Source: a virus | Lineage: Duplodnaviria; Caudoviricetes | Direction: 5' to 3' (one strand) | DNA length: 28,559 nt | IMG/VR virus record: IMGVR_UViG_3300048080_000045 | Location: 1-28,559 of that record | Shown: one piece after another, positions 3,844 through 27,514 of the stretch | Position numbering within the stretch: the first letter of the stretch is position 1 | Layout: each line of letters opens with the position of its first letter | Program-made: the position numbers and the translations under genes | The notes under the pieces: model-generated | Databases searched by the model: none | Told to the model about the DNA's origin: nothing | What the model saw: the letters and a program-made list of their open reading frames with translations, nothing else

Positions 3844-4029
3844 ATGTGCACGTGTTCAAAAACAAATGAGATTCCGGTTTGCCCTCAGACGGGTGAGGAT
3901 CTCGACCGCGTCGTTCAAATCATCAAATGCAAAATCTTTTTCGACATCATGACTGCCAGCGGGGGCAGGGCCGAATGCCGGGCCATAAATCTGCGGCTCC
4001 CGCCGCTCCCGGAGATGCCAACCGAATGA
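3844..4029 (+). CDS. Small hypothetical protein ending LPPLPEMPTE
   Basis: GAAGGAA RBS; contains copy 1 of the 108-bp repeat. Confidence 0.55.
   Translation: MCTCSKTNEIPVCPQTGEDLDRVVQIIKCKIFFDIMTASGGRAECRAINLRLPPLPEMPTE
3910..4017 (+). repeat. 108-bp exact direct repeat, copy 1
   Basis: gtcgttcaaatc...cccggagatg is identical to 5882-5989. Confidence 0.95.
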
Positions 4030-4181
4030 ACATCCAACGTCATCACATGGCGAGAAATAACATGCAGACCCGCCGCCAGAAGCGCGCCTGGGAAGCGGTG
4101 TTTGCGCTCCTGCTGGCACTGTCAGTCTGCTTCGCGCTCATGGCCGCTTGTGGGGCGATTGGGCTAGGAGGGACGGGATGA
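4026..4181 (+). CDS. Small membrane protein
   Basis: ATGA coupling; hydrophobic VFALLLALSVCFALMAACGAIGL. Confidence 0.6.
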   Translation: MNIQRHHMARNNMQTRRQKRAWEAVFALLLALSVCFALMAACGAIGLGGTG

Positions 4182-4985
4182 GAGCATTTAGCTTTGGCGG
4201 CGGCGTGCAATCGGTTGCGGTTCTGGTGTTGGGCGCTCAGGGAAAAGTCCAGTATGACTATTACCTGTTCTCTAACGTCGGAGAGGATAGTGAAGATCCG
4301 CGAACGTTGGAGTATTTTCGGAATATCGCCCTGCCGTTCGTTTGCCGAAGCACATCATTTGAATTTGATTGAGGTCTGGCGTGAATGGAAACGGGGAGAT
4401 AGAAAGGGTCAGCGCGAGACAGTATACATGCGAAGCATGGGCAACAATCGAAGCATCCCCATTCCGGCTAGAATGTCGAACGGCGCTCCCGGCAATCGCG
4501 CTTGTACATCTGATTTCAAGATAAAAGTCGTCAATAGTTTTTTGAAAGAGCGCGGGGCAACAGAGAAGAATCCCGCAACTGTTGGACTTGGCATCAGCGT
4601 TGACGAAATCCATCGAGCGAGAACAGAGAGCAACTTTCCCGAAGAAATACTTGAATATCCGCTGATAGATTTACGCCTAACTCGCCGCGACTGTGAACGC
4701 ATTATTCGCGATGCAGGTCTGCCCATCCCGCCAAAGTCGGCATGTTATTTCTGCCCATTCAAAAGCCGATCCGAATGGAAACACTTGAAATCCGATAGAC
4801 CGCAGTTATTTGATAAAGCAGTTAAGCTGGAATTGCGACTCAATGAGAAGCGAGGCAACTTGAAGAAAGACTGGGTTTACATTCATCCTGATATGGTTCC
4901 TCTCTCTCAAGCCGTTGCCAACGAACAAATGACGCTAGATCAAAACCCGGACGAGAACTGTGAATCTGGTTATTGCATGACCTGA
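4178..4985 (+). pseudogene. PAPS-reductase-like/adenine-nucleotide alpha-hydrolase (PP-loop) protein, +1 frameshift at ~4340
   Basis: N-terminal SFGGGVQS PP-loop in the frame of 4178. CTSDFKI, GISVDE, SACYFCPF and CESGYCMT lie in the +1 frame. A CGTT duplication at 4335-4342 joins the two parts. Confidence 0.8.
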
Positions 4986-5788: not shown

Positions 5789-5881
5789 GATGGATAAATT
5801 GAAAATAGCGATTAATGCGCTTGACGAAGTGGTGCGCTTGTGGAAACGCAGTAATAAGCGCGACCGCAATACCTGTCAGCA

Positions 5882-5989
5882 GTCGTTCAAATCATCAAAT
5901 GCAAAATCTTTTTCGACATCATGACTGCCAGCGGGGGCAGGGCCGAATGCCGGGCCATAAATCTGCGGCTCCCGCCGCTCCCGGAGATG
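5882..5989 (+). repeat. 108-bp exact direct repeat, copy 2
   Basis: Identical to 3910-4017; out of frame with the ORF starting at 5790. Confidence 0.95.
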
Positions 5990-5997
5990 GAGGAGAA

Positions 5998-6213
5998 ATG
6001 AGCAACATTGTTTGGCCTATTCTCTCTACTGAGGGTGGGAGTGAATAGGTTATCCGTGAGACAGCGGAGCTATTCATTGCCGACGCCTACGAGCGCGGGG
6101 CGAAGGCGGCACGCGAGGCGGACATTGCATGGCTTGCAAATCAGATTGGCTTGCTCTCGCGAGAGAAGATCGCAAAGTTCCGCGCCCTGCCGCTCCCGGA
6201 GATGAATGAATAA
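5998..6213 (+). pseudogene. Small protein with in-frame TAG (6046-6048) inside a hairpin
   Basis: GGAGGAG RBS, then MSNIVWPILSTEGGSE*VIRETAELFIADAYERGAKAAREADIAWL...LPLPEMNE. Confidence 0.55.
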
Positions 6214-8262: not shown

Positions 8263-8682
8263 TTACTCCCCCGGTGCAGGATCCGGCGTTGCATCGCACG
8301 GAAAGTAACGTATCCAAGTTCCCCCATCCATGTACTCGAAACACCACTCAATATACTGATAGTCATTGTCGTATGGATCGGCGTCCATTGTCGCCTGAAT
8401 ATCCGCGCCCCAGGTCGGTTCAATATCATCCGGTTCTGGCGTGTCTTCTATCGGCGTCTCATCCGGCCAACACCTATCCATCGGTGGATTGTAAATCTCC
8501 CCATCCGGGCAACTGGGTAGTGACGTTTCATCTGCTGTCGCTTCCAGCGTAGAAATTGTTATAGGCGCATCATTGCCGAGCGCATCCCGGTCAACTGGCT
8601 CAAGTCGTGTCAACCCCGACACGTTGACCGCTCCGGCAAGAGTCGCGCCGAGTGTGATAATAGTTAGAAGTTGTTTTATCAT
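8263..8682 (-). CDS. Secreted/membrane-anchored acidic hypothetical protein
   Basis: Start MIKQLL overlaps the upstream stop; N-terminal hydrophobic signal; Asp/Pro-rich with four Cys. Confidence 0.7.
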   Translation of the reverse strand: MIKQLLTIITLGATLAGAVNVSGLTRLEPVDRDALGNDAPITISTLEATADETSLPSCPDGEIYNPPMDRCWPDETPIEDTPEPDDIEPTWGADIQATMDADPYDNDYQYIEWCFEYMDGGTWIRYFPCDATPDPAPGE

Positions 8683-9407
8683 ATTGACCTCATCCTCCAT
8701 GCTCCCACGAAATGCAAAGTAAAATCTGCTGAAGCGCCAGGGCCGCTAGTTCCCCTAATTGCAATACATCCCGATGTTGCAGTCGAACAGGAATTCTCAA
8801 CCAAATACATATCCGTGATTGCTCCTAATAATGGCATGGCACTGGCATTGCGTGGGCCGATCATGAAGAATCTTTGACAAGTGCTTGTTTTTCCGACTAA
8901 CCAAGCATAATACCACCCGCCGCGAGATGCAGTATTCGAACTATGAGATGCTCCAATAGGAATCCAATACCCTATCGTTTCATTAGCGGCAGTATTAACA
9001 AGCGCCAAATTCAGTTCAGCGCAAGTATTGGCATTATTGAAATAGGTGCAAAATGCGGCAATGAATACAGCATCGTTTGCACCCAGATAGCTGGCGGCAT
9101 TGAATCCCCATACATCCCGACTCGTTCCGTCGGACAGCAATGTTGATGCAAGTGTTGAAACTTTTATCGGATAAAACGAATGCGTCCATTCCGGCGCAGT
9201 CCCGCCGCTGGCAACGGTCAAGGCCGTCCTTGCCGAACCTGCCGCCAGTCGGGTAAGTGTGTTCTTGGCAGTGGCGTAAACCAAATCAGCCGCCGTTGTT
9301 ACTGTCGCCGTTTCACTCGCGTTAAGGTTGTCGCGCAGATGTGTATTGAGCAATGCGGCGGTTACAATTTGATTCACTGTCCAGCGAATAGGAACCGTCC
9401 AAGCCAT
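8679..9407 (-). CDS. Tail fibre/receptor-binding protein paralog 3
   Basis: N-terminal MAWTVP..W....VTAALLNTHLRDNLN is shared with the two upstream genes; located at the end of the tail module. Confidence 0.7.
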   Translation of the reverse strand: MAWTVPIRWTVNQIVTAALLNTHLRDNLNASETATVTTAADLVYATAKNTLTRLAAGSARTALTVASGGTAPEWTHSFYPIKVSTLASTLLSDGTSRDVWGFNAASYLGANDAVFIAAFCTYFNNANTCAELNLALVNTAANETIGYWIPIGASHSSNTASRGGWYYAWLVGKTSTCQRFFMIGPRNASAMPLLGAITDMYLVENSCSTATSGCIAIRGTSGPGASADFTLHFVGAWRMRSI

Positions 9408-10169
9408 CTATACCGCCCTCGTCAACCACAATCCGGCAAAGCGCAAAATGCAAGAAATAGTTGCCGCCGCCGCACTATGGGTAATAGTAATGATGATATT
9501 ATGCGTTCCGCTTGATAAATCAATAGCACTCGTTGTCTCATTGATATAACTATCACATGCCTGACCAAGAGATAATGCCACAAGTGCCGTAGGTAATCCA
9601 GCTCCCGAATTCAAAAAATATTCCAGCGTATGTCTCTGAGAATCTACTGCGCCTTTATTTGCCAGAGTGTAATCCATCCATCCTAGACGACGAGACGCAC
9701 TCGTCGGATGAGCTAATACACTAATCGGCGTGAATATAACCGTTGAATCGGTTTTTATTTTTATGGTCAGGTTTCTATTGACGCCTGAATTGTTTAGATA
9801 CGATAAAAGGAAAAACAATTTTACTGCGCTTGTTGTTCCGAGCAATGTTCCGCCAATATCCGGGCTTGTATATATCGTCGTTTCGCTGGCGGTGTTGACT
9901 ACTTCCGTATCCTCCGTAACAATGTCCAGCGGCGCATAAGACTCTGCCCATTCCGGTATAGTTCCGGCGCTGTTGATAGTCAATGCCTCGTAAGTCGAAC
10001 CTATGGCAAGCGGTAATATGAAGTTTGGAAGTCCGGCATAAAACACATCTCCTGCCGCCGATGCTACACCTGCCGCCGATACGTTAAGATTATCACGCAG
10101 GTTGGTATTCATAATTGTGGCCGTGATGACCTCTAGGGTCGTAAATGTGCGCGGGGTATTCCAGGCCAT
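9408..10169 (-). CDS. Tail fibre/receptor-binding protein paralog 2
   Basis: MAWNTP...NTNLRDNLN; full-length similarity to 10171-10917. Confidence 0.7.
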   Translation of the reverse strand: MAWNTPRTFTTLEVITATIMNTNLRDNLNVSAAGVASAAGDVFYAGLPNFILPLAIGSTYEALTINSAGTIPEWAESYAPLDIVTEDTEVVNTASETTIYTSPDIGGTLLGTTSAVKLFFLLSYLNNSGVNRNLTIKIKTDSTVIFTPISVLAHPTSASRRLGWMDYTLANKGAVDSQRHTLEYFLNSGAGLPTALVALSLGQACDSYINETTSAIDLSSGTHNIIITITHSAAAATISCILRFAGLWLTRAV

Positions 10170-10170
10170 G

Positions 10171-10917
10171 TTATACCGCCCTCGTCAGCCACAACCCGGA
10201 ATGTCGAATGATGAGTGACTGGGTTGAGTTTGCCGATCCATGCTCAACGGTCATAATGATGTTGTGTATACCAGTAGATAAATCAACGGCGGTCGTCGTG
10301 TAGTTCATAATGGCCGATTGAGCGCCGCCAACGCTAGTTATCGCTCCGGTTGCCGCTGTTGCCTGAGATGATAAAAAATGTTTTTGTGAACTGGCAGATT
10401 GATTCTGTAATAGCATGTAATGAAATACCGTCGCTCTTCTGGTCACGCTGGTTACGTGCGACGCATCGTTTATAACAGTAAACAAGACTGTTGAATCCAA
10501 CTTTATCTTCACAGTTAAATCTTGTGTGGCTCCGGTATTGTTCAGATACGACAAGACCCACTCAAGTTTTATAGTATTGGTTGTCCCCAATAAATTGCTC
10601 CCGATATTTGGACTGGTATATATCGTCGCTTCGGCGGCATTGTTCAATATTTCGGCATCTTGAGTAATCACGTCAAGTGGGATATAACCTTCGCCCCACG
10701 TCGTAGCGGTCTGTCCGGCATTCATGGTCAGCACTTGATACGGACTGCCAATTGCTAGACGAGTGAGCGCCTTGTTTCCCGTCGCATAAAATGTATCTCC
10801 GGCTGTTGTACACACAGCGGGCGCAAGCGTGTTGAAGTTGTCCCGGATGTGGGTATTGAAGTTTGCCGCCGTTGGTACTTGGCCCGATGTCCAAGTCGCC
10901 GGTGTCGTCCAGGCCAC
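10171..10917 (-). CDS. Tail fibre/receptor-binding protein paralog 1
   Basis: MAWTTPATW...NTHIRDNFN; ends GLWLTRAV like paralog 2. Confidence 0.7.
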   Translation of the reverse strand: MAWTTPATWTSGQVPTAANFNTHIRDNFNTLAPAVCTTAGDTFYATGNKALTRLAIGSPYQVLTMNAGQTATTWGEGYIPLDVITQDAEILNNAAEATIYTSPNIGSNLLGTTNTIKLEWVLSYLNNTGATQDLTVKIKLDSTVLFTVINDASHVTSVTRRATVFHYMLLQNQSASSQKHFLSSQATAATGAITSVGGAQSAIMNYTTTAVDLSTGIHNIIMTVEHGSANSTQSLIIRHSGLWLTRAV

Positions 10918-12778: not shown

Positions 12779-15073
12779 TCATAGAACAGATGTTGCCGGA
12801 ATCAGGTCGCGCATCTGTAACTCGCGGATGACGGCCCTCGCTACCGATGCCGGGTCGCCTGCGCCGTCTATGTTGATATTTACCGTTCCGACACTCGCCC
12901 CACCACCGCGCATGACGAGCGCGCCGCCTTGAGGCACAACAAATTCATTTCGGTGAACGACTCCGGCAATTTCGTTACTCGATCCAAATCCGGTAAATCC
13001 GCCATTCTGAAAACCGCCGCCTGTTGCCGCCGCTCCAGCCGCCGCCGCTCCACCCAGGGCCGAGGCTGCTGCCGAGACTGCACCGACCACAACGTCATGC
13101 GCGACTTGTGCAATTTGTCCGGCCATTTGCAGAACACCGAGAATGATGTTATTGGCAAAATCAATTCCGAACTGTAGAGCATCTCCAAGTTTGGCGCGTA
13201 GATCATTGATAAGGTTTATAAGCCAGTCTTGTATGCCGCTGGTAATGTTCATCGTTCCCTGCGCGACGATTACTTTTAGAAGTTCCCAAACTTCAGTCCA
13301 TATCTGTCCAATTTCCGTAAGCGATGTGTCCATTGATTCGGCTATGGCATTTAGAATTGACGATACCGTTTCTAAAATCGTTTCCCATGCTCCCCGCCAA
13401 TCTCCCTGAATAAGTTGTAGGGCCGCCGCGATGACCCCGGAGATAAGCGTAATCGCTCCGATGATAGTATCGGATACAATAATCCAAGAGATTTGTGTAA
13501 CCCCGGAAATGGTATTGAAATTTTCCGACCACCATTTAGCAAGAGATTCGATTAACTCTCCGGCGGTTGAAATAGCCGTCCCCAAATTCTCGACCAGAAC
13601 CGGCCCAACAATAGCCCACATCTCTTGAACGCTCTTGCTAATCTTCCCCCATAGCTCCGCCATTTGCGGGCCGCGTTCGGCCACCGAGCCGGCGGCAGAT
13701 TGAATTGAGCCGATAAAACTTTGAACCCCATCAATGATTGGCTGAATGAAATCCAGGAATGATTGCCATGCCGTATTGGCTGTCTCTACTGCACCAGGAA
13801 GCTCTGCATTCATCCATCCTGTAAATTCTGTTGCCGCATCTACAACATCGGCTATGACGCCAATAATAGTTGTGAGCATGGCCTGAAAACTAAAGTTGGA
13901 AAAATCCAATCCCAGAAGTTCTCCAATAGTTGAAAACAATCCCCCAATGGAATCCCCCAACTCCTCCAGGCGAGGCCCCAAAACATATAGCGCCGCATCA
14001 AAGTTTTTGCTGAGAGTCTCAGCTACGTCCAAAATTATTGGAGATATTTTCGAGAATGTATCTTGAATAGATGGTAGAAGTTTTTTCCCTATTCCCTCAG
14101 CAACATCTAGTAGATTGTTTTTTAGAATATCCAATTGGCCTGCAAATGTCTTTCCTGACGCTTCTGCCGCGCCGCCGAATTTAGATTCCAGTTGATCAAG
14201 CAATGCCATTTGAGCGCCCATCACGTCGCCCGATTCATACATGGCCTTGATTGAATCCTGTTGCTCTTTCGTCATCCGACCTAATACCCGGCCTAAGAGA
14301 CTAATACCCTGAACAGGATTTTCCAGGGCTTTACCTACCATTTGGGCCGCGCTTCCCAAATCCATCCCCATTGCCGTTGCCATGTCAGCGACGGCCCTTG
14401 TAACATCCGGGAAAATATCCGCGCCAATGTTCTCAAATTTTAATAACATGGTTTGAGCCGATATAACCATGTCATCAGTGAATCGAGTCGTTCTTTGAAG
14501 TTCACTCGCCAACTCTAATATTTTTTCTTTTGTGATTTGGGCTACCGGCGGAACAAGACCCAGCGCGTCAACCAGGGACATTGTTTTAGGGCCAGCATTG
14601 GAAAGCTCCGCCGATAACCCTGACAACTCTTGTTGAAGTCTTTTTAGTTTTATGGCTTCTTCTTCATATACAGTATTAGCGGTTCCGTGTTCGGCGGAAA
14701 TCGCTTCCATCTTTGCCTGCTGTTTGGCAATGGCGATTTCTGTCAGACGATAATCATCTTGAAGTGTTGTCAATGCATCTCCGGTTAATCCGATGCTGGT
14801 AACAATCTGTCCTTGTGCGGCCTGCCACTGCGCCGCCTGTTCTGCCGCCGCCTCGCCAGTTGACCTTAATGCGACATCAAGCATTGCCTCTATCTCTTGC
14901 GCTTCCATTGCCTCTTTGATGGACAGCCCCACCGCCGCTGTCAGACCCGCAAAACCCGCCGCCGCTGCGCCGACTCCAATCGTGAGCGCGCCGCCGAGCA
15001 AGTCGGTGACGTTGCCGATAATTTTTGAAGCATGGTCTTTCGCTTCAAGAATTAGTTCTGCGGTATTAGCCAT
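12779..15073 (-). CDS. Tape measure protein
   Basis: 764 aa, Ala-rich and helical with Trp-spaced repeats; follows the chaperone; C-terminal GGF..GG..G...AGVVHRNEFVVP. Confidence 0.9.
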   Translation of the reverse strand: MANTAELILEAKDHASKIIGNVTDLLGGALTIGVGAAAAGFAGLTAAVGLSIKEAMEAQEIEAMLDVALRSTGEAAAEQAAQWQAAQGQIVTSIGLTGDALTTLQDDYRLTEIAIAKQQAKMEAISAEHGTANTVYEEEAIKLKRLQQELSGLSAELSNAGPKTMSLVDALGLVPPVAQITKEKILELASELQRTTRFTDDMVISAQTMLLKFENIGADIFPDVTRAVADMATAMGMDLGSAAQMVGKALENPVQGISLLGRVLGRMTKEQQDSIKAMYESGDVMGAQMALLDQLESKFGGAAEASGKTFAGQLDILKNNLLDVAEGIGKKLLPSIQDTFSKISPIILDVAETLSKNFDAALYVLGPRLEELGDSIGGLFSTIGELLGLDFSNFSFQAMLTTIIGVIADVVDAATEFTGWMNAELPGAVETANTAWQSFLDFIQPIIDGVQSFIGSIQSAAGSVAERGPQMAELWGKISKSVQEMWAIVGPVLVENLGTAISTAGELIESLAKWWSENFNTISGVTQISWIIVSDTIIGAITLISGVIAAALQLIQGDWRGAWETILETVSSILNAIAESMDTSLTEIGQIWTEVWELLKVIVAQGTMNITSGIQDWLINLINDLRAKLGDALQFGIDFANNIILGVLQMAGQIAQVAHDVVVGAVSAAASALGGAAAAGAAATGGGFQNGGFTGFGSSNEIAGVVHRNEFVVPQGGALVMRGGGASVGTVNINIDGAGDPASVARAVIRELQMRDLIPATSVL

Positions 15074-15677: not shown

Positions 15678-16094
15678 TTAGACAACCGATGCCGATAGCG
15701 AACCGCTGGCAATCTGGAAGGCCGCCCCGAACGTGACCGCCGCCGTCACTATTGCCGCTTCATTGTAACTGTTCAACAAAAAGCATCCGGTGAAGAATGG
15801 CGAACCGGCGACTCGCGCCGGATATACCTTGAGCAACGTATTGGATGACCCGCTGGCGGCGTTGGACAACAGGTCTTTTGATGACCCGCCGCTATTCCAG
15901 ATTCCGGCGATGTCAAACGTCACATCGCGCAGGCCGGAAATTCGGTGAACGGTGTCTTTGGAAAATACCGTTACGTCTGGATTATCGCGTGACCAACTGA
16001 GAGTCCAGCTATTCAAATCTCCGGCGATATTCTGACTCGCGCCTGCGCTATCCCAGGCTTCGACAATTGCATTACGTCCGTGTATCTGTGACAT
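15678..16094 (-). CDS. Major tail (tube) protein
   Basis: IHGRNA...DVTVF......ISGLRD.TFDIAG.W is typical of tail tubes; AAGGAG RBS; synteny. Confidence 0.85.
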   Translation of the reverse strand: MSQIHGRNAIVEAWDSAGASQNIAGDLNSWTLSWSRDNPDVTVFSKDTVHRISGLRDVTFDIAGIWNSGGSSKDLLSNAASGSSNTLLKVYPARVAGSPFFTGCFLLNSYNEAAIVTAAVTFGAAFQIASGSLSASVV

Positions 16095-16703: not shown

Positions 16704-17134
16704 GATCCCATTCCTTCCATCTGGAGAATATCTCCCATGTCGGCCTCTACTTCTGCAACCATTTTTTCAACTGCTTCATGTTCAACGGCATCTCTAATAA
16801 GTACCCAACGACCTTCGTGGATCAATGCCTGACCATGACCAATATAGTTTCCACCGACATTAACTGTGTAATGCCTGCCCTTTTGAACTGCATCGCTCTC
16901 CAACCTTGCGCCGATGATTCCTGTTCCGAGTTTGATAAGCTTAAACGAGCGGCCATAAATACCCGTTCGGATATAGCGTTGATTGGGCAATTCGGGCGGA
17001 TACTTCTGCGCTCGTTCTTTGGCATTGGTCATTAGACGCCATAGAACGCGAAACCCTATTTTGGGAATCGCGTCCCCGACGTTCTTCAACGAGCGCCGGA
17101 CTTTTTCAGATTCAATCTTGACCGTTAACTGCAT
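16700..17134 (-). CDS. Neck/tail completion protein (HK97 gp10-like position)
   Basis: YPP....RYIRTG.YGRS motif; synteny. Confidence 0.65.
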   Translation of the reverse strand: MQLTVKIESEKVRRSLKNVGDAIPKIGFRVLWRLMTNAKERAQKYPPELPNQRYIRTGIYGRSFKLIKLGTGIIGARLESDAVQKGRHYTVNVGGNYIGHGQALIHEGRWVLIRDAVEHEAVEKMVAEVEADMGDILQMEGMGS

Positions 17135-18368
17135 TCTCTTCTACCTTGCAAATCTGAAGTATTGCCTCAATCGTTCGCGTTGTTTCCCCGCCGGTCTTGT
17201 ATCCAGCGGCATAGGTTTCGATGAAATTATCCCAATCGGCGACGGCCAGCGCCGAGTCAACAAGTGCAGGCAAGTCACTCGCTTGCCCGCGTGGGGGGAA
17301 TGTGTGCGCGAAGTCAAAGCCTTCGGTCTGGATATAGCATGATGGGCGGCCCATCATAGCCGCTTTGATGCACAAGTTGCTTGGCCCATGACAGACCACG
17401 ACATCAGCGGCCATCGTCGTGTAAACCTTGTGTGTCCGAGTCACAATCCGCCCCGGCCCGCCCAGGCCCGCCGCTTTCATTTTGTCGGCATAGACCTGCT
17501 CCCTTTGCGGTGCTTCGTTGGGGTGCATGTTGACGATTAGATTAGCGTCTCTCGCCTTCGCTAGTTCAACGACGGCCAAAAACGACTCTTCAAACTCAAC
17601 TTCAAATGTGCTGCGGAGTGAGGTCGTTTGCCCCCAGGTCGTGCCATAGTTGAGAGTCAATCTATCCGGCAGGCCCAACACCCGCCGCGCTTCGGCCTTG
17701 TCTGGTAGATTTGAATCGTATACCCCCTCCCACTCTGGCAAGCCGACCTCAATCATTCTCCAATCGGCAACGCCACAATCCCGATAGAACTGAGTCATAT
17801 AGCGCCCACTGGTGAGTATCCAATCCGTCCGAGTCTGGCGGTGAATGTCCTCTATGCCCGGCAGAAGGTGACAGGCAGCATGAGGCAGGTGAATTGTCGG
17901 AATACGACTGGCCTTGCAGTATAGGACGATTGAGCGCATATCCGGGGTTACATCCTCGTGAACTAAGCACCCAACGATTGATTCTGATTTGACCATATTT
18001 TCGAGTACGGCAATCGTCGTTACCTGCCCTAAAATACGCTCGTGAATGAAACCTGTAAACCATTCCGGTAATTTGCTGTTGAGCGCGGGCGGAACGCCAT
18101 GTCCATATACATTGACGATTCTTTCTGATAGTACTGGCATGTCGCGGATAATATCGGAAGTCAAATTCAACGCATCGCTGAGAACTCGTTCCCGAATCTC
18201 AGAAGTGAAAAATTGACTGGGTGATATGACGTCAATGCCATTCTCACGGGCTACCTGTTCGGCAGCGGGTGCGATGAAGGCCAGCCGGAAATGCTCTGCC
18301 AGTCCCGGCCACAGCGGGCGGGTATTGGCCGCGCCGGAGATAAGAAAAACTGGCTTAGGGTTGCTCAT
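17112..18368 (-). CDS. GT-B fold glycosyltransferase (capsule biosynthesis/CDP-glycerol transferase-like)
   Basis: Probable start MSNPKPVF. Motifs HED..., TIHLPH, D.ILTSG, EVG.P.W, MHPNE and ADVVV...SN...AAMMGRP. Confidence 0.7.
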   Translation of the reverse strand: MSNPKPVFLISGAANTRPLWPGLAEHFRLAFIAPAAEQVARENGIDVISPSQFFTSEIRERVLSDALNLTSDIIRDMPVLSERIVNVYGHGVPPALNSKLPEWFTGFIHERILGQVTTIAVLENMVKSESIVGCLVHEDVTPDMRSIVLYCKASRIPTIHLPHAACHLLPGIEDIHRQTRTDWILTSGRYMTQFYRDCGVADWRMIEVGLPEWEGVYDSNLPDKAEARRVLGLPDRLTLNYGTTWGQTTSLRSTFEVEFEESFLAVVELAKARDANLIVNMHPNEAPQREQVYADKMKAAGLGGPGRIVTRTHKVYTTMAADVVVCHGPSNLCIKAAMMGRPSCYIQTEGFDFAHTFPPRGQASDLPALVDSALAVADWDNFIETYAAGYKTGGETTRTIEAILQICKVEENAVNGQD

Positions 18369-18534
18369 TGAGTTTTGCCGCCTGTTCGTCAAACCACTGC
18401 TTCCAAATTGCGCCGAGTTGCCGCCTGACCTCATACTGAAATACATCTACCAGGTCAACGCCTTTGTATTGCAAGTTGTCGCGCCACTGTTGCGCGAGTG
18501 TTGCATTTATTATTTCTGCTTCGTCTTTGGTCAT
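18355..18534 (-). CDS. 59-aa hypothetical protein
   Basis: MTKDEAEIINATLAQQWRDNLQYKGVDL...; ATGA-coupled to the upstream GT and overlapping the next start. Confidence 0.6.
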   Translation of the reverse strand: MTKDEAEIINATLAQQWRDNLQYKGVDLVDVFQYEVRRQLGAIWKQWFDEQAAKLNEQP

Positions 18535-19862
18535 GCCGCCACCGTCGCCACTTCGTCAATATAGGTAATCCCCGGCAAACGCGCTTTGTTGCCTCGTGTA
18601 ATCTTGTCGGCAATGATGCGCCCGAAGATGTCGCCGTATACGTTTGCGTTTGCTTCAAACGTCACTTTCCGCATTGCCCACGCCTGCCGACTAAGAGCCT
18701 GTTCTTTCTCTCGCTCCAGATATTTAATCTTGTTATCTAATGCCGTAAACCACGCATCGGGTGTATTGTTCACCAGAGTCCCCATGTGATTCAAGTCATT
18801 GTATGTCTCCGATTTTGATGCAACCCAGGGGACACCAGCGCTGAGATACTCTACTGCTTTGAGCCATGACCTTCGTTCATCATAGCCGACGATGGGCGCA
18901 CCCTCGCGCCAGGGCGGGTCAAGCGGGCGGGTATCCAGGGGCGCTATCCCGATGTCGAAGGTTGCTACGACGTGCGGCCAGTCTTCGGGTTTGACGCCAT
19001 CCTGCCGGATAATGCGACCTTCCCATCGTTTGAAAATATAATCCAGCCTGCTTTCATGCCCGCAGAACTTTAGCCGGGCTTGCGGATACTTTTCAAATAT
19101 CCGGTCAAGGGCCTCTATCGCGCCGCTATAAATCCACGAATCAACGTGGGAGATAGACCCGCCCCATCCAATGATAATCTCGCCCGCACTCCCATCTCTT
19201 ACCGTTCCGGTTAATTCATATCGCTCCGGCTTGTCGGGCGGGATAGGCTTATAAGTGTAGGAAATATCCGGCGCGTCTACCGGCTTATGCGCTACTTTTT
19301 CGTACCACGCCCGCCGCGTCCAGTTCGGTATCCAGTAACCAGGGATGATGTGCGCCCAATCAGCACAGATGACCTTTGACGGTGAGGTTAGGGCGTCGGC
19401 GTGCCTCATGCCCTCGGCAAGCGCCTCAATCGGTGCTACCGGGTTATCGCCCATGTTGCGGATCCAATATTGGAAGGCCGGGTTGGAAGGCGGCAAGCCG
19501 GGGTAATGGTCATCCAAGTCTACTACAACTGCCTTTCCGAGCGCGCGCCAGTAATCCATCGCCGCATATACTTCAGGGACAATCACGTTTCGTTGAAAGC
19601 ATAGAACGTCGGCCATACCAAGTGCCTTCTGGACTGTCGGATTATCCCAAGCCAACGCCGTTGGCATGTAATAGAGTTTGATGGTGTGCGGAGTTCGGCC
19701 CGCTTCATGCTCGGCATTGACGGCATTGCCGGGTGAAAGACATCGCCATTCACTGCAATTCCACTCTCCAGGAGATTTTTTCTTTTTTCAAGAATCCGCA
19801 AAGAGATGGATGATATGTAATCCCCCTTGCGGATTCTTCAACTTAGCAGAAGTTGTTGACAC
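18531..19862 (-). CDS. GT4-like glycosyltransferase; probable true start GTG 19862 with internal TGA (19790-19788) needing bypass or readthrough
   Basis: QRN, DLDD, IGWGGS.SH, FDIGIAPL, SWLKAVEY...GVPWVAS motifs. The upstream in-frame segment has a GGGGGTG RBS and reads ...HIIHLFADS*KKKKSPGEWNCSEWRC... Confidence 0.8.
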
Positions 19863-19917
19863 TATGACCACCCCCTTTGTTTACCGTGAATTTAGGCAAT
19901 AACATCTCATTTTCCTA

Positions 19918-19926
19918 TGGTATAAT
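19918..19926 (+). promoter_or_regulatory. Extended -10 promoter, antisense to the virion operon
   Basis: TGGTATAAT (TGn-TATAAT). Confidence 0.6.
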
Positions 19927-19929
19927 TGA

Positions 19930-20045
19930 ACTGTCTAGGTAGTTCGGTTTCTCTGTTATTTCTGTTTATCGCGCTCGCCCATCACCCGGTCTACCTAGAC
20001 AATAGACAGAGTTGTGATTGGGCGAGCATCTTTTAACAGGAGAAT
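19930..20045 (+). ncRNA. Candidate structured small RNA/cis-regulatory element
   Basis: Stems 19932-19942/19991-20001 (11 bp perfect), 19973-19985/20014-20027 and 19949-19958/20034-20044. Confidence 0.45.
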
Positions 20046-20049
20046 TGCC

Positions 20050-20274
20050 TTAGCCATCCCCCTTCTTCCCTTTCTTCGTCTTCACTTCCACTGGCGGATA
20101 TTCTTCTTCAAAATGCAATCGGTCATCCCGCCATATCCAAATCTCAGACCATGATTGGGGATGAGCATCAAGCCAGGCCCGCGCCTCGTCAAGCGAATGA
20201 CAGGTGTGCAGAAAATCCCGCCCGCCGCCGTCCGGTATTTGTCCAGTACCGCCGAAAATCCAGAAGATACCCAC
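20050..20274 (-). CDS. Hypothetical protein
   Basis: AAGGAG RBS; 74 aa. Confidence 0.65.
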   Translation of the reverse strand: MGIFWIFGGTGQIPDGGGRDFLHTCHSLDEARAWLDAHPQSWSEIWIWRDDRLHFEEEYPPVEVKTKKGKKGDG

Positions 20275-20288
20275 GTTATTTTTCTCCT

Positions 20289-20825
20289 TCAGTCATCTCT
20301 CGTTTGCGGGTCGCCACTCGACCCGCCCGGCCCAGGCTCCAGCGCCGCTGGATTAGAGAACATCCCACGAGCAAAGCGCGGCGTTACCCGGTCAGTATCC
20401 CCTTCGATTGTCTCTTTGTCGCTCACGCTGATACCGCCCGCATACATCCGGCTGATATTGGTGACTCCCATTTCTGACAGGTCGAGCGACAACAGCACTT
20501 TCATCAATGCATCAAAATCTTTCTTGAACATATCCGCCCGCGTGCGTTCGTCAGATGATACGCGGGCATTTAGCCTTGACCGTTCGGCCCACCAGGCGCC
20601 ATAAGCGGCATTTGCCTGCTTTGCTACATCATAGGCGTCGGATGTTGACGCAATCGGTGCACTGTATCCAGCGGATTTTATTTGAGAATTGATAATGGCG
20701 CAACCCGTCGAGAGCCACATATTTACGGCGGTTATAGTAGGTGACGTAGACATATCAAAATCTTCGGCCTTGCCGAGTAGATTTTGACAGAGTATCCCAA
20801 CGTCGGAAGCGGAGCAGTAAGCCAT
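20289..20825 (-). CDS. Head-tail adaptor/connector protein
   Basis: MAYCSASDV N-terminus and I..QI...GY..PI pattern are typical of adaptor proteins. Confidence 0.75.
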   Translation of the reverse strand: MAYCSASDVGILCQNLLGKAEDFDMSTSPTITAVNMWLSTGCAIINSQIKSAGYSAPIASTSDAYDVAKQANAAYGAWWAERSRLNARVSSDERTRADMFKKDFDALMKVLLSLDLSEMGVTNISRMYAGGISVSDKETIEGDTDRVTPRFARGMFSNPAALEPGPGGSSGDPQTRDD

Positions 20826-20838
20826 AGAAAGCCAATCC

Positions 20839-21120
20839 TTAAAGCTTCTGTTGAATTATAGCACTTGCGCCCGTTCCAGATATGCTCGCCGCCGCCCAGC
20901 CATAATTTGAAATGAATGGCCCAAACATCTGCGTTGTAAGCGGTGAGGCAATGATTACCTGAAACGGCGATCCGGTTGCCGATGCTCCGACAAACCACAT
21001 GACTGATCCGCTCGCGCCCGCAGTCGCCAGACCTACCCATGTCCATCGCGCTGGACTAGCCGGAGCAAATGAGGCCGATACGGTAAAAATACTTGCAGTA
21101 TTGGGAACTAGAATTGCCAT
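20839..21120 (-). CDS. Small Ser/Ala-rich virion protein
   Basis: Probable start MAILVPN, 1 nt after the upstream stop with GGAG RBS. Confidence 0.65.
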   Translation of the reverse strand: MAILVPNTASIFTVSASFAPASPARWTWVGLATAGASGSVMWFVGASATGSPFQVIIASPLTTQMFGPFISNYGWAAASISGTGASAIIQQKL

Positions 21121-21406: not shown

Positions 21407-21726
21407 TAGGTCATGCTCCTTGATTCAGGCGGCACGCGGATAATACGCTCATCAGACTCAACCAATAACTGGCGGGACAGCGCTGGAATTCTTACAGACC
21501 TCAATTCGTCGTCAACTAAAAACCAGCGCGGATGATAAGGGACGCGATATGTCCTGTCTCCAGGCGGTTCAATAACGATGATAATAATAACCGCCACCAC
21601 ACCGCGATACAGCCATGTCATTTGTTGGCGGTCGTTAGCATCCGTCGTTGCGTCTGCCGATGGCATGACGATAATCGGCAAAGAATTTATGGCTGAGGCG
21701 CGTTTATCCCGGCTATCTATTGCCAT
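21406..21726 (-). CDS. Hypothetical virion-associated protein
   Basis: MAIDSRDKRAS...DRQQ..WLY.G; coupled to neighbouring genes. Confidence 0.7.
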   Translation of the reverse strand: MAIDSRDKRASAINSLPIIVMPSADATTDANDRQQMTWLYRGVVAVIIIIVIEPPGDRTYRVPYHPRWFLVDDELRSVRIPALSRQLLVESDERIIRVPPESRSMT

Positions 21727-24407
21727 TATCCGCTTACCATCTTTTCGCGGCTAAAAATGCTGGCCGCGCTATCGGCTATGCTTGCCTTTGCAATCACCGT
21801 TCCAGCATTATTCGTAATCTGAATACACCCGCTGGAAGTGCTTGCCGAATTGCGAAGAGCCATGTATAGAAGTTGCATTGCTTGTTCAAGCGTAGGTGTT
21901 GCCGATGGTTGCCCGACTCCTAGCTCAGTCATGCTGATACCTGTCAGGGTAACAATCGCAAATCGTGATGCGGCACTATCGGCAATCTCGGCGCTTGTCA
22001 GAGACGAAGCCGAAAATTTGCAAGCCGATATGGTGGATGCCGCAAAAGCCGCCGCGTGGATACTGTTCGCCGCCAGAGTAGAAGCGGCAATAGTAGAAGC
22101 CGCCATAGCGCCTACGCTAGAGTCCATCCGTCCACCGACGAGCGCGGCGGGTATCCGGGTCTGAATATCATCGGTATCAGATTGAACGGTTGATAGAGCC
22201 GCAGATGTAGCCAGGCCGGATTGAATCTCTGTCACTGCATCCGTTGCCAGAGCCGCCGCGTCCAATGCGTTAGCCGAAATCTTGCAAGCACTAATCGTGC
22301 TCGCGGCAATTGCCGCCGCGTGGATACTGTCAGCGGCAAACGTCGAAGCGACAATTAGAGATGCACCAATGCTCGTCAATGTCCGAGTCGCGCTCTGCCA
22401 AATCTCGTCCGCCGCCCCTTGCGTGAATTCACTCACCCCAATAGATGAGGCGGCCATAATGTTTTCCGAGATGGCACACGCTCCGAACTTGGCGTTGGTT
22501 AAAGTGCTGGCTGCTACGTGAGACGAGTCAATCGCATTCGCCCCAATTTTGGATGCGGTCAAAGTTGACGCGCCGATGATGTCGGCGGTAATAGCAGCCG
22601 TTGCGAACTTGGCATTCGTCAATGCGCTGGCCGCAATCGCCCCGGCATTGATGGTATTATCCGCCATCGCCGCCGCGTCAATGGCATCGGCCTGGAAGGA
22701 TGAGGCATTGATAGCCGATGCACCTGTACCCGTAATCGTCCGAGTAGTTGTTGACCAGGCTTTATCCGCCGCTCCTTGAGCGAACTCGTTAGCGCCTATC
22801 GCATCTGTCGCAATGGAAACCGCATCAATAGCGCCCGCCTGAAAGGTGCTGGCCGTGATTGCGCTGGCAGTCAGAGTCCGGGTCGTACTACTCCAAATCT
22901 GGTCAAGCGCCGCCTGAGTAATCTCGCTTATCCCGATGGACGACGCGCCCATTATATTTTCCGATATAGCACAAGCGGCGAACTTGGCATTTGCCAAAGT
23001 GGAAGCGGCGAGAGTAGCAGCCTCAATTGAATTCGCCGCGAACTTGGATGCGGTGAGGATAGACGCTCCCAGAGTATCGGCTACAAGAGCGCCACTGCCG
23101 AACTTGGTAACGGTCAAGGTGCTGGCCGCTATTGCTCCAGCGTCTATCGCATTGTCGGCAATCGCAACTGCGTCAATCGCTCCAGCCTGGAAAGTGGAAG
23201 CAGTTATAGCCGAAGCTGTGAGCGTACGGGTTGTGAAATTCCAAATATCGGTCGTCGTCGGAGCGGTTGCGCCTGGGATTGACCCAAACGGCAGAACGAC
23301 GAACACCGAATCGTTAGCAGGCGCAGTGATGAAATTCGAGTTGGGAATTGCTACACGAGTTGACGGGAAATCAGACAATACCCGCGATTGCCCGCTTCCC
23401 GTTCCGCCGACAATCATTAGCATCGTGTTATTGAAGAAACTCGCCGCGCTGGGGCTGTCATCTCTGAATGTAATTGTCCCTGCCGCACCTGCACAGGCCG
23501 TCCCACTGTAAAGCGGTTGCATCCGTTGGCCGAAGGTATTGTTGGTCGTATGTATCCCGCTGGCCGCTTCTTCCCAAACCAGGCCCGCGATGTTAGACGC
23601 CGCGCTTTGGGCAAACTCACTCACGCCGATTGCCGAGGCCCCGATTGCCACCGAGTCAATTGCGCCAACGCCGAAGGTAGAAGCGACAATCATAGAAGCA
23701 TTTAGGGCGGTGAGTGTCCGGGTTGCGCTACTCCAAGTTTGGTCAATTGCGGCTTGCGTTATCTCGCTTATGCCGATAGATGATGCCGCCATGATATTCT
23801 CGGAGATAGCGCAGGCTCCGAATTTGGCATTGGTCAAGGTTGACGCCGCAACTGTAGCCGCTTCGATGCTATTTGCGGAGAACTTGGAAGCGGTCAGCGT
23901 AGAAGCGGCAATGTGAGACGAATCAATGCTGTTGGCCGAAATATTGCAGGCAGAGAGAGTCGAGGCATTGACTGCCGCCGCGTGAATTGCATTGGCGGCA
24001 ATAGCCGAAGCGTTGATAGCCGAAGCCGCGATACTTCCGATTGTGACTTGACTGGAGCTATTGACAGCAATCCCTGTACCGCTCGTAGTGGGGAATGCTA
24101 GGTCTTTTAGTTGACGAGTAGCAGTATAGATAACTCCAATTGCTTCTTTGGCGCTGGCTGTTGTCGAAATGGCTTTGTAAATGACAATATCGGCGTCCAT
24201 CTCTGTCGAGGCACACGACAAAGTGTAAACGCCTTGACTAGCGCCAATCTCGGCAGGAGCATTGCTCGCCGCCGAAAATCCCGCGCCGTCCTTGCTAATG
24301 CAAGCTGCTAAACCTGCGCCGCCTTTTATGATTGCGCCACTGGCATCATAAATGGGGAAGGCAACTAAGAGCGAGGCTCCCTTGAGAGGCGGGGTATCGC
24401 TGGACAT
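21726..24407 (-). CDS. 893-aa Ala/Ser-rich repetitive fibre protein (head/collar fibre-like)
   Basis: 10-aa periodic repeats (IAASTLTASK/FSANSIEAAT) plus a larger block repeated three times. Confidence 0.75.
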   Translation of the reverse strand: MSSDTPPLKGASLLVAFPIYDASGAIIKGGAGLAACISKDGAGFSAASNAPAEIGASQGVYTLSCASTEMDADIVIYKAISTTASAKEAIGVIYTATRQLKDLAFPTTSGTGIAVNSSSQVTIGSIAASAINASAIAANAIHAAAVNASTLSACNISANSIDSSHIAASTLTASKFSANSIEAATVAASTLTNAKFGACAISENIMAASSIGISEITQAAIDQTWSSATRTLTALNASMIVASTFGVGAIDSVAIGASAIGVSEFAQSAASNIAGLVWEEAASGIHTTNNTFGQRMQPLYSGTACAGAAGTITFRDDSPSAASFFNNTMLMIVGGTGSGQSRVLSDFPSTRVAIPNSNFITAPANDSVFVVLPFGSIPGATAPTTTDIWNFTTRTLTASAITASTFQAGAIDAVAIADNAIDAGAIAASTLTVTKFGSGALVADTLGASILTASKFAANSIEAATLAASTLANAKFAACAISENIMGASSIGISEITQAALDQIWSSTTRTLTASAITASTFQAGAIDAVSIATDAIGANEFAQGAADKAWSTTTRTITGTGASAINASSFQADAIDAAAMADNTINAGAIAASALTNAKFATAAITADIIGASTLTASKIGANAIDSSHVAASTLTNAKFGACAISENIMAASSIGVSEFTQGAADEIWQSATRTLTSIGASLIVASTFAADSIHAAAIAASTISACKISANALDAAALATDAVTEIQSGLATSAALSTVQSDTDDIQTRIPAALVGGRMDSSVGAMAASTIAASTLAANSIHAAAFAASTISACKFSASSLTSAEIADSAASRFAIVTLTGISMTELGVGQPSATPTLEQAMQLLYMALRNSASTSSGCIQITNNAGTVIAKASIADSAASIFSREKMVSG

Positions 24408-26587: not shown

Positions 26588-27514
26588 TTACGCTACGACA
26601 GACTTGAGTAAATACCCGGCATCCGTCGCGGTTAGCTTGACATCAAACGACCACATGCCAGCGATTACGTCTTGTTTCTCCTGATCTTCGCGGTATCTCT
26701 CAATCACCCGATTTTTGTACGTCATCACATAGCCCGCGTTCGGCGTGCCAAGCGATGCGCCGCCCACCACATAAGCCAGAAGCATGTGCTTGCCCCAGAT
26801 GAATGAGAGCGAATCGGTCGCGCCTTCAGCGGCGGTATTCTCAATCTGCGTGCCGACGAGCAATTTGTCCAGCCCAAACAGGGCGGCAATTGCATTGAGC
26901 GAAACAATCGCCGGAGATTGCGGCCCAGCCGCGCCGCGAATGCGATCGACAATATCAGGATGATTCTTAAAATCGGACAGAACGTTGTATCCGATGACTC
27001 CAACATTGGGCATCGCGCCGATGGCGGCCACGATTGTTTCAAATCCGACTTCGACATCTTCAATAGGCGTTGAGCTTGGATTGTCCCAGGTTACGCCAGG
27101 GGTAGACGACGAACTCCAGCCCGTACCGAAGGCATCGGCAGCAACTTTGGATTCAAGTTCGGCATGAAGCTGTCGGGTTACAAACTCCGTGCCATCGCGC
27201 AAGGGATTGAGCGGGTTATTAGAGTTTCGTACTTGTTCATCAGTAACCGGAGTCGCAAAAGCATACTCGATGCAGGTGTATTGACTGGTAGACAGGCTAT
27301 ACCCGCCGCGAACGGCGCGAGTACCGGGGCCGCGCGGCTGTGCTTCACGCCGGAGCCAATCGCCTTTGTTGAAGATGAAATACTTATCAGTAATTCTCTC
27401 CACTGGGACGACGGGGAATACCTGTTCATGAATGAACGTTTGCGGATTGTAGGCGATGCTGATATTCGTCAGCGGCACGTCAATATGGTACTGTTGATAA
27501 GTTGGCTTGGTCAT
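26588..27514 (-). CDS. Major capsid protein
   Basis: 308 aa; HID.PLTNISIAY....FI...VFP.VPV, W....S.PI.D, L.NHPDI.DRI and DAGYL motifs; AAGGAG RBS. Confidence 0.9.
   Translation of the reverse strand: MTKPTYQQYHIDVPLTNISIAYNPQTFIHEQVFPVVPVERITDKYFIFNKGDWLRREAQPRGPGTRAVRGGYSLSTSQYTCIEYAFATPVTDEQVRNSNNPLNPLRDGTEFVTRQLHAELESKVAADAFGTGWSSSSTPGVTWDNPSSTPIEDVEVGFETIVAAIGAMPNVGVIGYNVLSDFKNHPDIVDRIRGAAGPQSPAIVSLNAIAALFGLDKLLVGTQIENTAAEGATDSLSFIWGKHMLLAYVVGGASLGTPNAGYVMTYKNRVIERYREDQEKQDVIAGMWSFDVKLTATDAGYLLKSVVA

Follow-up and report, generated by a model that had tools for sequence, protein, structure and literature searches.

The 28,559-nt stretch of DNA analysed here (IMG/VR record IMGVR_UViG_3300048080_000045, positions 1 to 28,559; hereafter the window) is a partial genome of a tailed phage, with genes of the major capsid protein (26588-27514), the tail tube (15678-16094) and the tape-measure protein (12779-15073). 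Between its capsid and tail genes, together with a second gene of this kind, lies a glycosyltransferase gene of the minus strand, which is broken by a stop codon close to its 5' end. It starts with GTG (19862-19860) and is read through 24 codons (open reading frame (ORF) 1, 19791-19862) down to TCT (Ser24, 19793-19791), which is followed by an in-frame TGA (19790-19788, context UGA-A), the run AAA AAG AAA AAA and a second TCT (19775-19773). Directly past the latter and in the same frame, 413 open codons beginning with PGEWNCSEWRC (ORF2, 18531-19772) encode the rest of the enzyme without further break. Skipping the 18 nt that comprise the TGA, the A-rich run and the second TCT (19773-19790) joins 24 and 413 codons into a chain of 437 aa. 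An earlier note on this DNA, which proposed that ribosomes hop over the gap, had described the locus correctly base for base, and its estimate of about 437 aa agrees with our codon count. Results of our analysis indicate that this glycosyltransferase is likely produced as one chain by programmed short-range translational bypassing, with the first TCT as the inferred take-off codon and the second, which is the best match to it within the gap and is preceded there by no equal triplet, as the inferred landing codon.

The 18 nt can be regarded as an insert because the close homologues of the window protein read FADSPGEWNC without interruption. The cluster-mates P0123 and P0124 (P0123 is 91% identical) and P0003 (82%) have the insert-free sequences HLFADSPGEWNC / HLFADSPGEWNCSEWRC at this place. 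The six extra codons are, as the earlier note had supposed, absent in relatives: KKKKS occurs in none of the homologues, and the D-x4-W-N spacing is preserved in 108 of the 113 distinct N-terminal segments with both motifs, is one residue longer in five, and in none longer by more than one. As concerns a possible assembly artefact, positions 18400-21000 are matched by a Logan unitig of depth 26.7 without any difference, indel or joint, which excludes an error of the assembler; the unitig possibly derives from the source run of the window DNA and thus cannot be counted as a second, independent sample, and rare variants are lost in contigs.

According to its predicted structure, the gapped gene is that of a GT-B, GT4-like glycosyltransferase. 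The AlphaFold model of P0003 (pLDDT 93, pTM 0.90) comprises two Rossmann-like domains with a group-1 donor-binding region, and a Foldseek search with this model identified PimA, PimB' and MshA (E about 1e-11 for PimA and MshA), with identity to solved structures of only 10-14%. The match to Pfam PF13692 is below the cut-off, while the PHROG match is a glycosyltransferase. Residues 6-11 of the model form the first strand, which in the window is encoded ahead of the stop: ORF1 consists of a 12-residue N-terminal extension (VSTTSAKLKN..), absent from the coupled intact homologues, and of GLHIIHLFADS, the first beta-strand of the GT-B fold. A role of the enzyme in virion glycosylation is putative and is suggested by the position of its gene in the virion operon. 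GT-B, GT4-like enzymes are also encoded in the virion operons of Cluster O mycobacteriophages (PMC4351075); the accessible part of that paper describes glycosyltransferases and, in other genes, a possible bypass.

The GTG start is preceded by an extended Shine-Dalgarno (SD) sequence, AAAGGGGGTGGT (19867-19878, minus strand). The earlier note had called the ribosome binding site good, and the predicted SD duplex of -16.6 kcal/mol is in fact the strongest of the 37 scored starts of the window, the next one having -9.8 kcal/mol. Gene callers place the start of this protein past the gap (P0002), which would correspond to termination at the TGA and re-initiation at ATG 19667, with a 24-aa peptide and a 378-aa protein as products. 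We consider this hardly credible, since ATG 19667 (+2.3 kcal/mol) is devoid of an SD and since the invariant N19, W23 and R24 as well as helix 1, encoded between the gap and this ATG, would be left untranslated, so that the fold would lose both its first strand and its first helix.

The hairpin described in the earlier note was found at its place. Its 5' arm (19838-19827), located in the codons of the N-terminal extension, forms 12 Watson-Crick pairs with the 3' arm (19801-19790), which ends with the take-off codon plus the U of UGA, and G-U pairs extend the fold. A fold as good was obtained in 2 of 200 shuffles (z -2.62), and in none of 200 when the whole stretch 19770-19865 was considered (z -4.52). 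The gap itself is predicted to be unpaired. A small 6-bp hairpin (19839-19855, minus strand), common to the related locus L071, separates the start codon from the 5' arm. When the 12-bp stem is fully zipped, 14 nt remain between its foot and the landing codon, which is about the length covered by a ribosome on its 5' side. The comparison of this hairpin with the take-off stem-loop of T4 gene 60, as drawn in the earlier note, does not hold: the take-off codon is at the 3' foot of the stem, as in an upstream stem of the driver type.

A survey of relatives indicates that the gap of the window is one of many. Scans with an alignment of 59 proteins and with an N-terminal pattern yielded loci L001-L140, which gave, together with the window, 69 distinct glycosyltransferase loci with a usable 5' end; a single-protein query returned no matches in the scans of viral contigs, a profile search and an Atlas search added family breadth only, and no match to this glycosyltransferase was found in cultured phages. 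The named relatives are a contig of a Steroidobacteraceae metagenome-assembled genome (MAG; 58%, intact) and Anaerolineales MAGs (28-32%). Gaps were called by protein-to-DNA alignment to the nearest intact homologue; those in frame were flagged only with a stop inside, while frame-shifting ones could be found with or without a stop. The set does not include L043 (5' end not alignable), L021 and L125 (about 40% identity), the first, intron-like break of L015, breaks in variable loops or C-terminal tails judged to be alignment noise (the natural ORFs being open there), and L062, where one further stop-first gap is too close to the contig end. In total, 36 gaps of 4-18 nt and of 33 different strings were identified in 25 of the 69 loci, one in each of 15 loci, two in nine and three in one (L056), and thus the insert is not a peculiarity of the window genome. 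Where a start could be placed, 35 of the 36 are at codons 11-35, and one is near codon 100. Forty-one loci are cleanly intact, and the gapped ones are so scattered over a quick tree that 14 gains or losses are needed, at least 11 of them forced. No frame break was detected in other window genes when compared to 3814 ORFs of L001-L140, and within these loci the extended SD pattern marks the glycosyltransferase gene almost exclusively.

These gaps, despite their different sequences, have common features. A stop codon opens 30 of the 36 (25 times TGA, 18 of these TGAC), compared with 6.1 in shuffles of the gap letters under the same placement rule (a maximum of 16 in 3000), and 20 of the 26 that shift the frame. 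The latter are of both +1 and +2 type, with lengths of up to 17 nt. The last triplet of the gap is identical with the take-off codon in 13 cases, is readable by the same tRNA in 17, and agrees with it in at least two of three positions in 28 (null expectations about 1, 2 and 7, respectively); several mismatches are of the wobble type (TCT/TCC, AAT/AAC, GCT/GCC). Eleven kinds of amino acids occur at the take-off site. Related phages thus keep the stop, near-matched codons and, as described below, an upstream stem at varied gap lengths, a point that the earlier note had raised. Its further proposal that the gap limits or times virion glycosylation gained no support: the 41 intact homologues and the near-identical pairs of intact and gapped genes argue for a dispensable selfish insert.

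The strong SD and the stem accompany the gaps also in the relatives. The median SD duplex is -15.0 kcal/mol in 22 gapped genes vs. -5.9 kcal/mol in 43 others (p=2e-7). The pairing of the 12 nt that end at the take-off codon with upstream sequence has a median of -13.0 for 29 gap events vs. -7.3 for 314 tests at the same positions of the 41 intact genes, and shuffles of the codon order in the upstream part are beaten at p<0.05 by 16 of the 29 events vs. 15 of the 314 controls. The pairing partner is usually within codons 2-6, the signal is maximal at -3 to 0 from the take-off, and the z value for the window is -5.8. The clearest case is L071, which has the same GTG start as the window and shares with it the SD, the first nine codons and the 74-aa ORF further upstream. 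It has no gap at Ser24 and instead has a 5-nt gap ten codons further on, with the 5' arm rewritten so that it pairs with its own take-off site. The comparison of such sequences suggests that a shift of the gap is accompanied by a remodelling of the stem.

Purifying selection acts on both sides of the gap. The ratio of nonsynonymous to synonymous substitutions (dN/dS) is 0.062 for the window and L071 (208 codons), 0.061 for L072 and L039 and 0.10 for L075 and L076, with dS above 1 in each pair. In the codons ahead of the stop, eight pooled gapped pairs differ at a proportion of 0.78 of synonymous sites (pS) and 0.11 of nonsynonymous sites (pN; pN/pS 0.14), and the window and L071 have 11 of 11 residues in common there despite about six silent changes. 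Past the gap, 21 of the 24 gapped loci tested have an ORF of 335-517 codons that ends at a normal stop; in the three others it runs off the contig. Therefore, both sides end up in a product. That the gapped genes are dead, as pseudogenes or as repair scars at a nuclease hot spot, could be in line with the large number of cleanly intact loci, with a glycosylation that may be dispensable and with nearby nucleases able to leave scars; nevertheless, this is very unlikely in view of about 400 codons free of decay, of selection ahead of the stop, of the strongest SD in the window, of the compensating stem and of genes with double and triple gaps.

In the bypassing that we propose, the strong SD would recruit ribosomes, which after 24 codons would come to a pause, UCU occupying the P site and UGA the A site. 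The arm of the stem within the N-terminal codons would then zip with the mRNA exiting the ribosome, pulling the mRNA out and driving the ribosome forward, while the peptidyl-tRNA-Ser would release its codon, slide across the unstructured A-rich gap and re-pair at the second UCU, and decoding would restart at CCU. The strong SD may compensate for ribosomes lost to termination and for the stem that covers early codons. A stop that directly follows a codon, a similar codon at the other end of the gap, gaps in any frame and a stem that closes at the ribosome exit are the marks of peptidyl-tRNA take-off, sliding and re-pairing. Pairing of the exiting mRNA has also been proposed as the forward driver in gene 60 (accessible parts of PMC5009743 and bioRxiv 10.1101/2024.12.09.627546). 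None of the refutation tests that were run overturned the hop suggested by the earlier note, which we infer from sequence comparison.

The gap could alternatively be decoded, by readthrough of UGA in the window and by assorted +1 and -1 frameshifts in the relatives, with residues being added to the protein. The gap of the window and nine others are in frame, the commonest stop context is UGA-C (18 of 30), which is a weak terminator and a context of the RF2 shift, and the site corresponds to a loop between strand 1 and helix 1. We consider this decidedly unlikely, since 26 of the 36 gaps shift the frame, by both +1 and +2, no intact homologue has more than one extra residue at the site, and readthrough needs neither matched end codons nor a stem that tracks the take-off site. 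Moreover, TGA terminates 14 of the 37 listed genes of the window (the glycosyltransferase being counted twice), and a UGA-recoding host is ruled out by the same count. Selenocysteine insertion was rejected as well: the sequence past the UGA is A-rich and unpaired, unlike a selenocysteine insertion sequence element, and the homologues have no residue there.

The gap could also be absent from the RNA that is translated, being removed by a trans-acting ribozyme or by a nuclease and a ligase, or skipped by RNA polymerase at the nascent hairpin. In L015, a 207-nt group I-like insert (L015:9792-9998), with U before it and G as its last base, interrupts the Trp codon of EWNC in the same motif. We read by hand what we take to be its P1, P3, P7 and P10 pairings, and Rfam gave no match to it at E<=1; the insert is situated behind a GIY-YIG gene and is followed by a stop-first gap of 6 nt. 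A hairpin ending at the break would suit a jump of the polymerase too, and neither removal nor jumping requires that a tRNA re-pairs at poorly matched landings. Nonetheless, we regard such explanations as improbable, slightly more so than decoding of the gap. A self-splicing intron cannot be accommodated in 4-7 nt, group I ends can be placed in only five of the 36, the flanks resemble each other over the length of a codon, in frame and with wobble tolerated, splicing has no use for an in-frame stop at the head of the gap, and Rfam and tRNA scans gave no match in the window or in six gapped loci. A group I intron at the window gap itself was rejected, as no slide of the ends of its 18 nt gives a terminal G.

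DNA-level phase variation, in which the gap would be excised between 3-nt direct repeats in a part of the population, would account for the direct repeat and the hairpin that flank the gap and for the near-identical intact and gapped alleles. It is highly improbable, given that a single bubble-free unitig spans the site (rare variants would be missed), that an exact repeat is lacking in over half of the gaps, and that the intact alleles differ throughout the 5' module and not only in the gap.

The proposed bypassing resembles that of gene 60 and of phage Hau3 in the way it would work, although the element of the window is neither a gene-60 element, judging from the gap size, the gene and the stem position, nor of the Hau3 type, as it has no UUA. 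In T4 gene 60, of a topoisomerase large subunit, a gap of about 50 nt is bypassed and comes with a MobA-type cassette (accessible parts of bioRxiv 10.1101/2022.08.31.505936, PMC7026636 and bioRxiv 10.1101/2024.12.09.627546). Both systems have a stop directly past the take-off codon (TGA in the window), a matched or wobble-matched landing (TCT/TCT in the window), exiting-mRNA pairing as the proposed driver, and a gap in an invariant motif next to free-standing homing endonucleases, which are frequently lost or exchanged. The 5' stem, which in our case is indicated by prediction and covariation, is a partial likeness: it runs into the take-off codon, while that of gene 60 ends 9 nt before it, and the gene-60 take-off codon lies within the 5' side of a stem-loop, as it does here in only a few relatives, and not at a 3' foot. 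Further differences concern the length of the gaps (at most 18 nt vs. 50 nt), the gene (a glycosyltransferase without homology to topoisomerase or MobA) and the number of sites, with 11 take-off amino acids as compared with Gly46/Asp45. The take-off at codons 11-35 would, in the shortest cases, come too early for a nascent-peptide signal of the gene-60 type. The window also lacks a mini-SD 6 nt before the landing codon, where its gap is A-rich, and a 3' slippage barrier, and its strong SD is the initiation SD.

In the terminase genes of Streptomyces phages Hau3 and StrepC.1, gaps are of 7-10 nt, and the junction peptide was detected by mass spectrometry in E. coli (accessible parts of PMC10732093 and PMC5009743). 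Short gaps, two of them in one gene, their location in conserved motifs and the 5' stem-loop and upstream SD proposed as signals are common to that system and ours. The Hau3 type is characterised by the rare sense codon UUA, internal sites and an occurrence in 3 of 100 genes, whereas the gaps described here mostly open with UGA, are start-proximal and occur in 25 of 69 loci; TTA is the first codon in none of the 36. Synthetic "stop-hops" (Weiss 1987, as described in PMC5009743) were low-level and unprogrammed. Matched codons around a stop, by which 9 nt give one residue, are present also in L056 (AGG TGA AGG; CTT TGA CTT), L065 and L117. In its accessible part, a 2016 review (PMC5009743) expected short-range counterparts of bypassing and knew of no natural in-frame stop-hop. 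The byps of Magnusiomyces mitochondria are related mobile repeats of 27-55 nt in a mitochondrial system that is relaxed and leaves a sense codon unused (accessible parts of PMC5009743 and bioRxiv 10.1101/2022.08.31.505936). They are similar to the gaps of the glycosyltransferase genes in being numerous, several per gene, and in having imperfect landing matches, and local hairpins that hold take-off, stop and landing can be found in L020, L051, L054 and L109. The differences are the length of 4-18 nt, the 33 mostly unrelated strings, and the setting of phage genes, a bacterial ribosome and UGA as a normal stop.

As to the origin of the gaps, our results lean slightly towards their spread as immunity against homing endonucleases, the conserved YADS..EWNCS.WR being the target of free-standing nucleases encoded upstream. 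Each gap would destroy the cut site of the nuclease with the protein unchanged, would travel with the 5' module by gene conversion, and could persist after nuclease loss, as in the window. The gap of gene 60 protects against MobA and outlasts MobA (accessible part of bioRxiv 10.1101/2022.08.31.505936). Doubly gapped L009 and intact L040 encode proteins of 99% identity; their DNA is unrelated on the upstream side and turns near-identical just behind the second gap, which is the pattern expected from a conversion tract. Among gapped loci, upstream nucleases were recognised in L012 (HNH) and in L015, L020 and L075 (GIY-YIG type); the 83% relative of L075, L076, is doubly gapped too and has none. 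A TnpB-like gene with a Cas12f1-like TNB domain (L110:1270-2652) is located upstream of an intact homologue.

Several observations weigh against bypassing as proposed here or against its link to nucleases. In only 20 of the 36 gaps is the landing codon the earliest of the best matches, in eight the literal match is at one position only (TGG/TAC of L095 is poor), and only nine of the 25 first gaps have a same-tRNA match, so that anticodon re-pairing alone cannot account for all landings. Six gaps open with a sense codon, 13 of the 29 events do not beat the stem null, and the window gap is in frame, so that UGA readthrough fits the window copy when taken alone. No constant distance from stem to landing was found across the gapped family, and no 3' barrier either, the 3' folding being weaker than in intact genes (-8.1 vs. 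-10.3). Intact L041, L022 and L001 have strong SDs as well. A homing endonuclease is encoded directly upstream in four of 16 gapped vs. two of 35 intact loci (L001 and L079), a weak link (p=0.069), as counted in loci with at least 700 nt upstream with up to four of the longest ORFs of the upstream slot per locus (89 in total); among the slot ORFs examined in the window there is none. The gap events are related by descent, and the p-values given here therefore overstate their independence.

A still broader proposal, which we put forward tentatively and hold to be somewhat doubtful, is that the gaps belong to a general and portable micro-bypass module of phages, in which the initiation SD and the first codons of a gene would be rewired into a driver stem. 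This would enable ordinary ribosomes of bacteria to make hops of 4-18 nt at an early stage of elongation, even onto poor matches and several per gene, and homing nucleases would use it as a route to immunity of their target sites in unrelated genes. Three scans of viral contigs with the SD pattern returned 7 and at least 80 loci (at least 75 distinct starts), the short ORFs of which were read by eye. Among the matches listed, two carry the module in unrelated genes, each as one sequence. In L147 (1399-1951, minus strand), an ORF of an HNH-type nuclease ends over the strong SD of an SNF2 helicase gene, codons 1-3 of which pair with a stretch that ends at an ATG. The gap has 7 nt, starting with CGG, and past it the helicase motif continues as in Paenibacillus phage LincolnB. 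In L148 (277-765), a gap of 4 nt, TAGC, interrupts an RNase H gene at codon 12, within its DG.C..PNPGG motif (the homologue is only 36% identical), and a nuclease ORF (PHROG match, 1.6e-20) ends in the SD of this gene. The portal gene of L205 (718-890), which combines a strong SD with a TAG in frame at codon 54 (TAT TAG TGT; the compared homologue is only 38% identical), is a candidate for a hop or readthrough.

If the module is indeed portable, the SD and the stem, and not the anticodon alone, would set the landing, unrelated nucleases (HNH, GIY-YIG, LAGLIDADG-like) would exploit a third route of target-site immunity beside introns and inteins, and many phage genes annotated as truncated or broken at the 5' end would be whole. 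Natural bypassing is described in print for very few systems (T4 gene 60 and its relatives, Magnusiomyces mitochondria and the Hau3 terminase). In our search, neither bypass gaps of a phage glycosyltransferase nor micro-gaps close to the start were the subject of any paper, with most subscription papers and all supplements outside the reach of this search; the supplements of two bypass preprints could list further cases. The glycosyltransferase family is a natural allelic series, in which gaps of 33 strings and with 11 take-off amino acids occur singly, in pairs or in threes, in and out of frame, with intact near-twins as controls and a compensatory stem change. The cassette of about 110 nt fits a reporter, which makes the exiting-mRNA driver and the need for a codon match at landing directly testable. 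The gaps also expose a blind spot of annotation, as gene callers place the starts of gapped proteins past the gap. The database homologues P0010, P0016, P0030, P0040, P0045, P0049, P0084, P0086, P0088, P0093, P0095, P0103 and P0125 have junk N-termini and join the frame inside EWNCSEW; they are probably further gapped or intron-bearing alleles mis-started in this way.

Intact L001, L008 and L041 retain a strong SD, an arm-like N-terminal extension or both, and look like genes that have precisely lost a gap or have yet to acquire one. In the window, a possible upstream ORF of 20 codons (MLLPK..KGGGH..; 19843-19905, minus strand), kept in L071, runs across the SD, with its stop codon inside the small hairpin and just ahead of the stem arm. 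It may be what remains of a nuclease, or may modulate the stem; in L020 and L147, the SD is similarly overlapped by the ends of nuclease ORFs. A 74-aa ORF in the variable upstream slot (20050-20274, minus strand), present also in intact L017 and L027, has no family match and is not recognisable as a nuclease. About 75 nt ahead of the start there is a putative promoter-like motif (19921-19939, minus strand). It occurs in four gapped (L009, L024, L026, L035) and two intact loci (L001 and L003, in the latter 42 nt before the start), while a strict promoter pattern had no match in the window, its spacer being one base too long. A 5' region resembling that of the window is present in a low-depth contig of run X1.

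The second glycosyltransferase-like gene (17112-18368, minus strand; PF04464 match) is downstream in the same virion operon. Many loci have kept the 59-aa ORF (18355-18534) that lies between the two glycosyltransferases; it clusters with forms of the first enzyme that are longer (480-510 aa) and thus is probably a split-off C-terminal domain. The same operon encodes an 893-aa Ala/Ser-rich repetitive protein (21726-24407), a possible acceptor of glycans. At the end of the tail module there are three tandem paralogues of 242-253 aa (8679-10917) starting with MAW(T/N)..P(RT/A)TWT. A gene similar to those of 3'-phosphoadenosine-5'-phosphosulfate reductases (4148-4985) is apparently split into overlapping frames (4148-4372 and 4194-4985), a break seen in no homologue of the fetched loci. 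In the early region, a stretch encoding MQNLFRHHDCQRGQGRMPGHKSAAPAAPGD is present twice (5815-6048 and 3844-4181) as a direct duplication.

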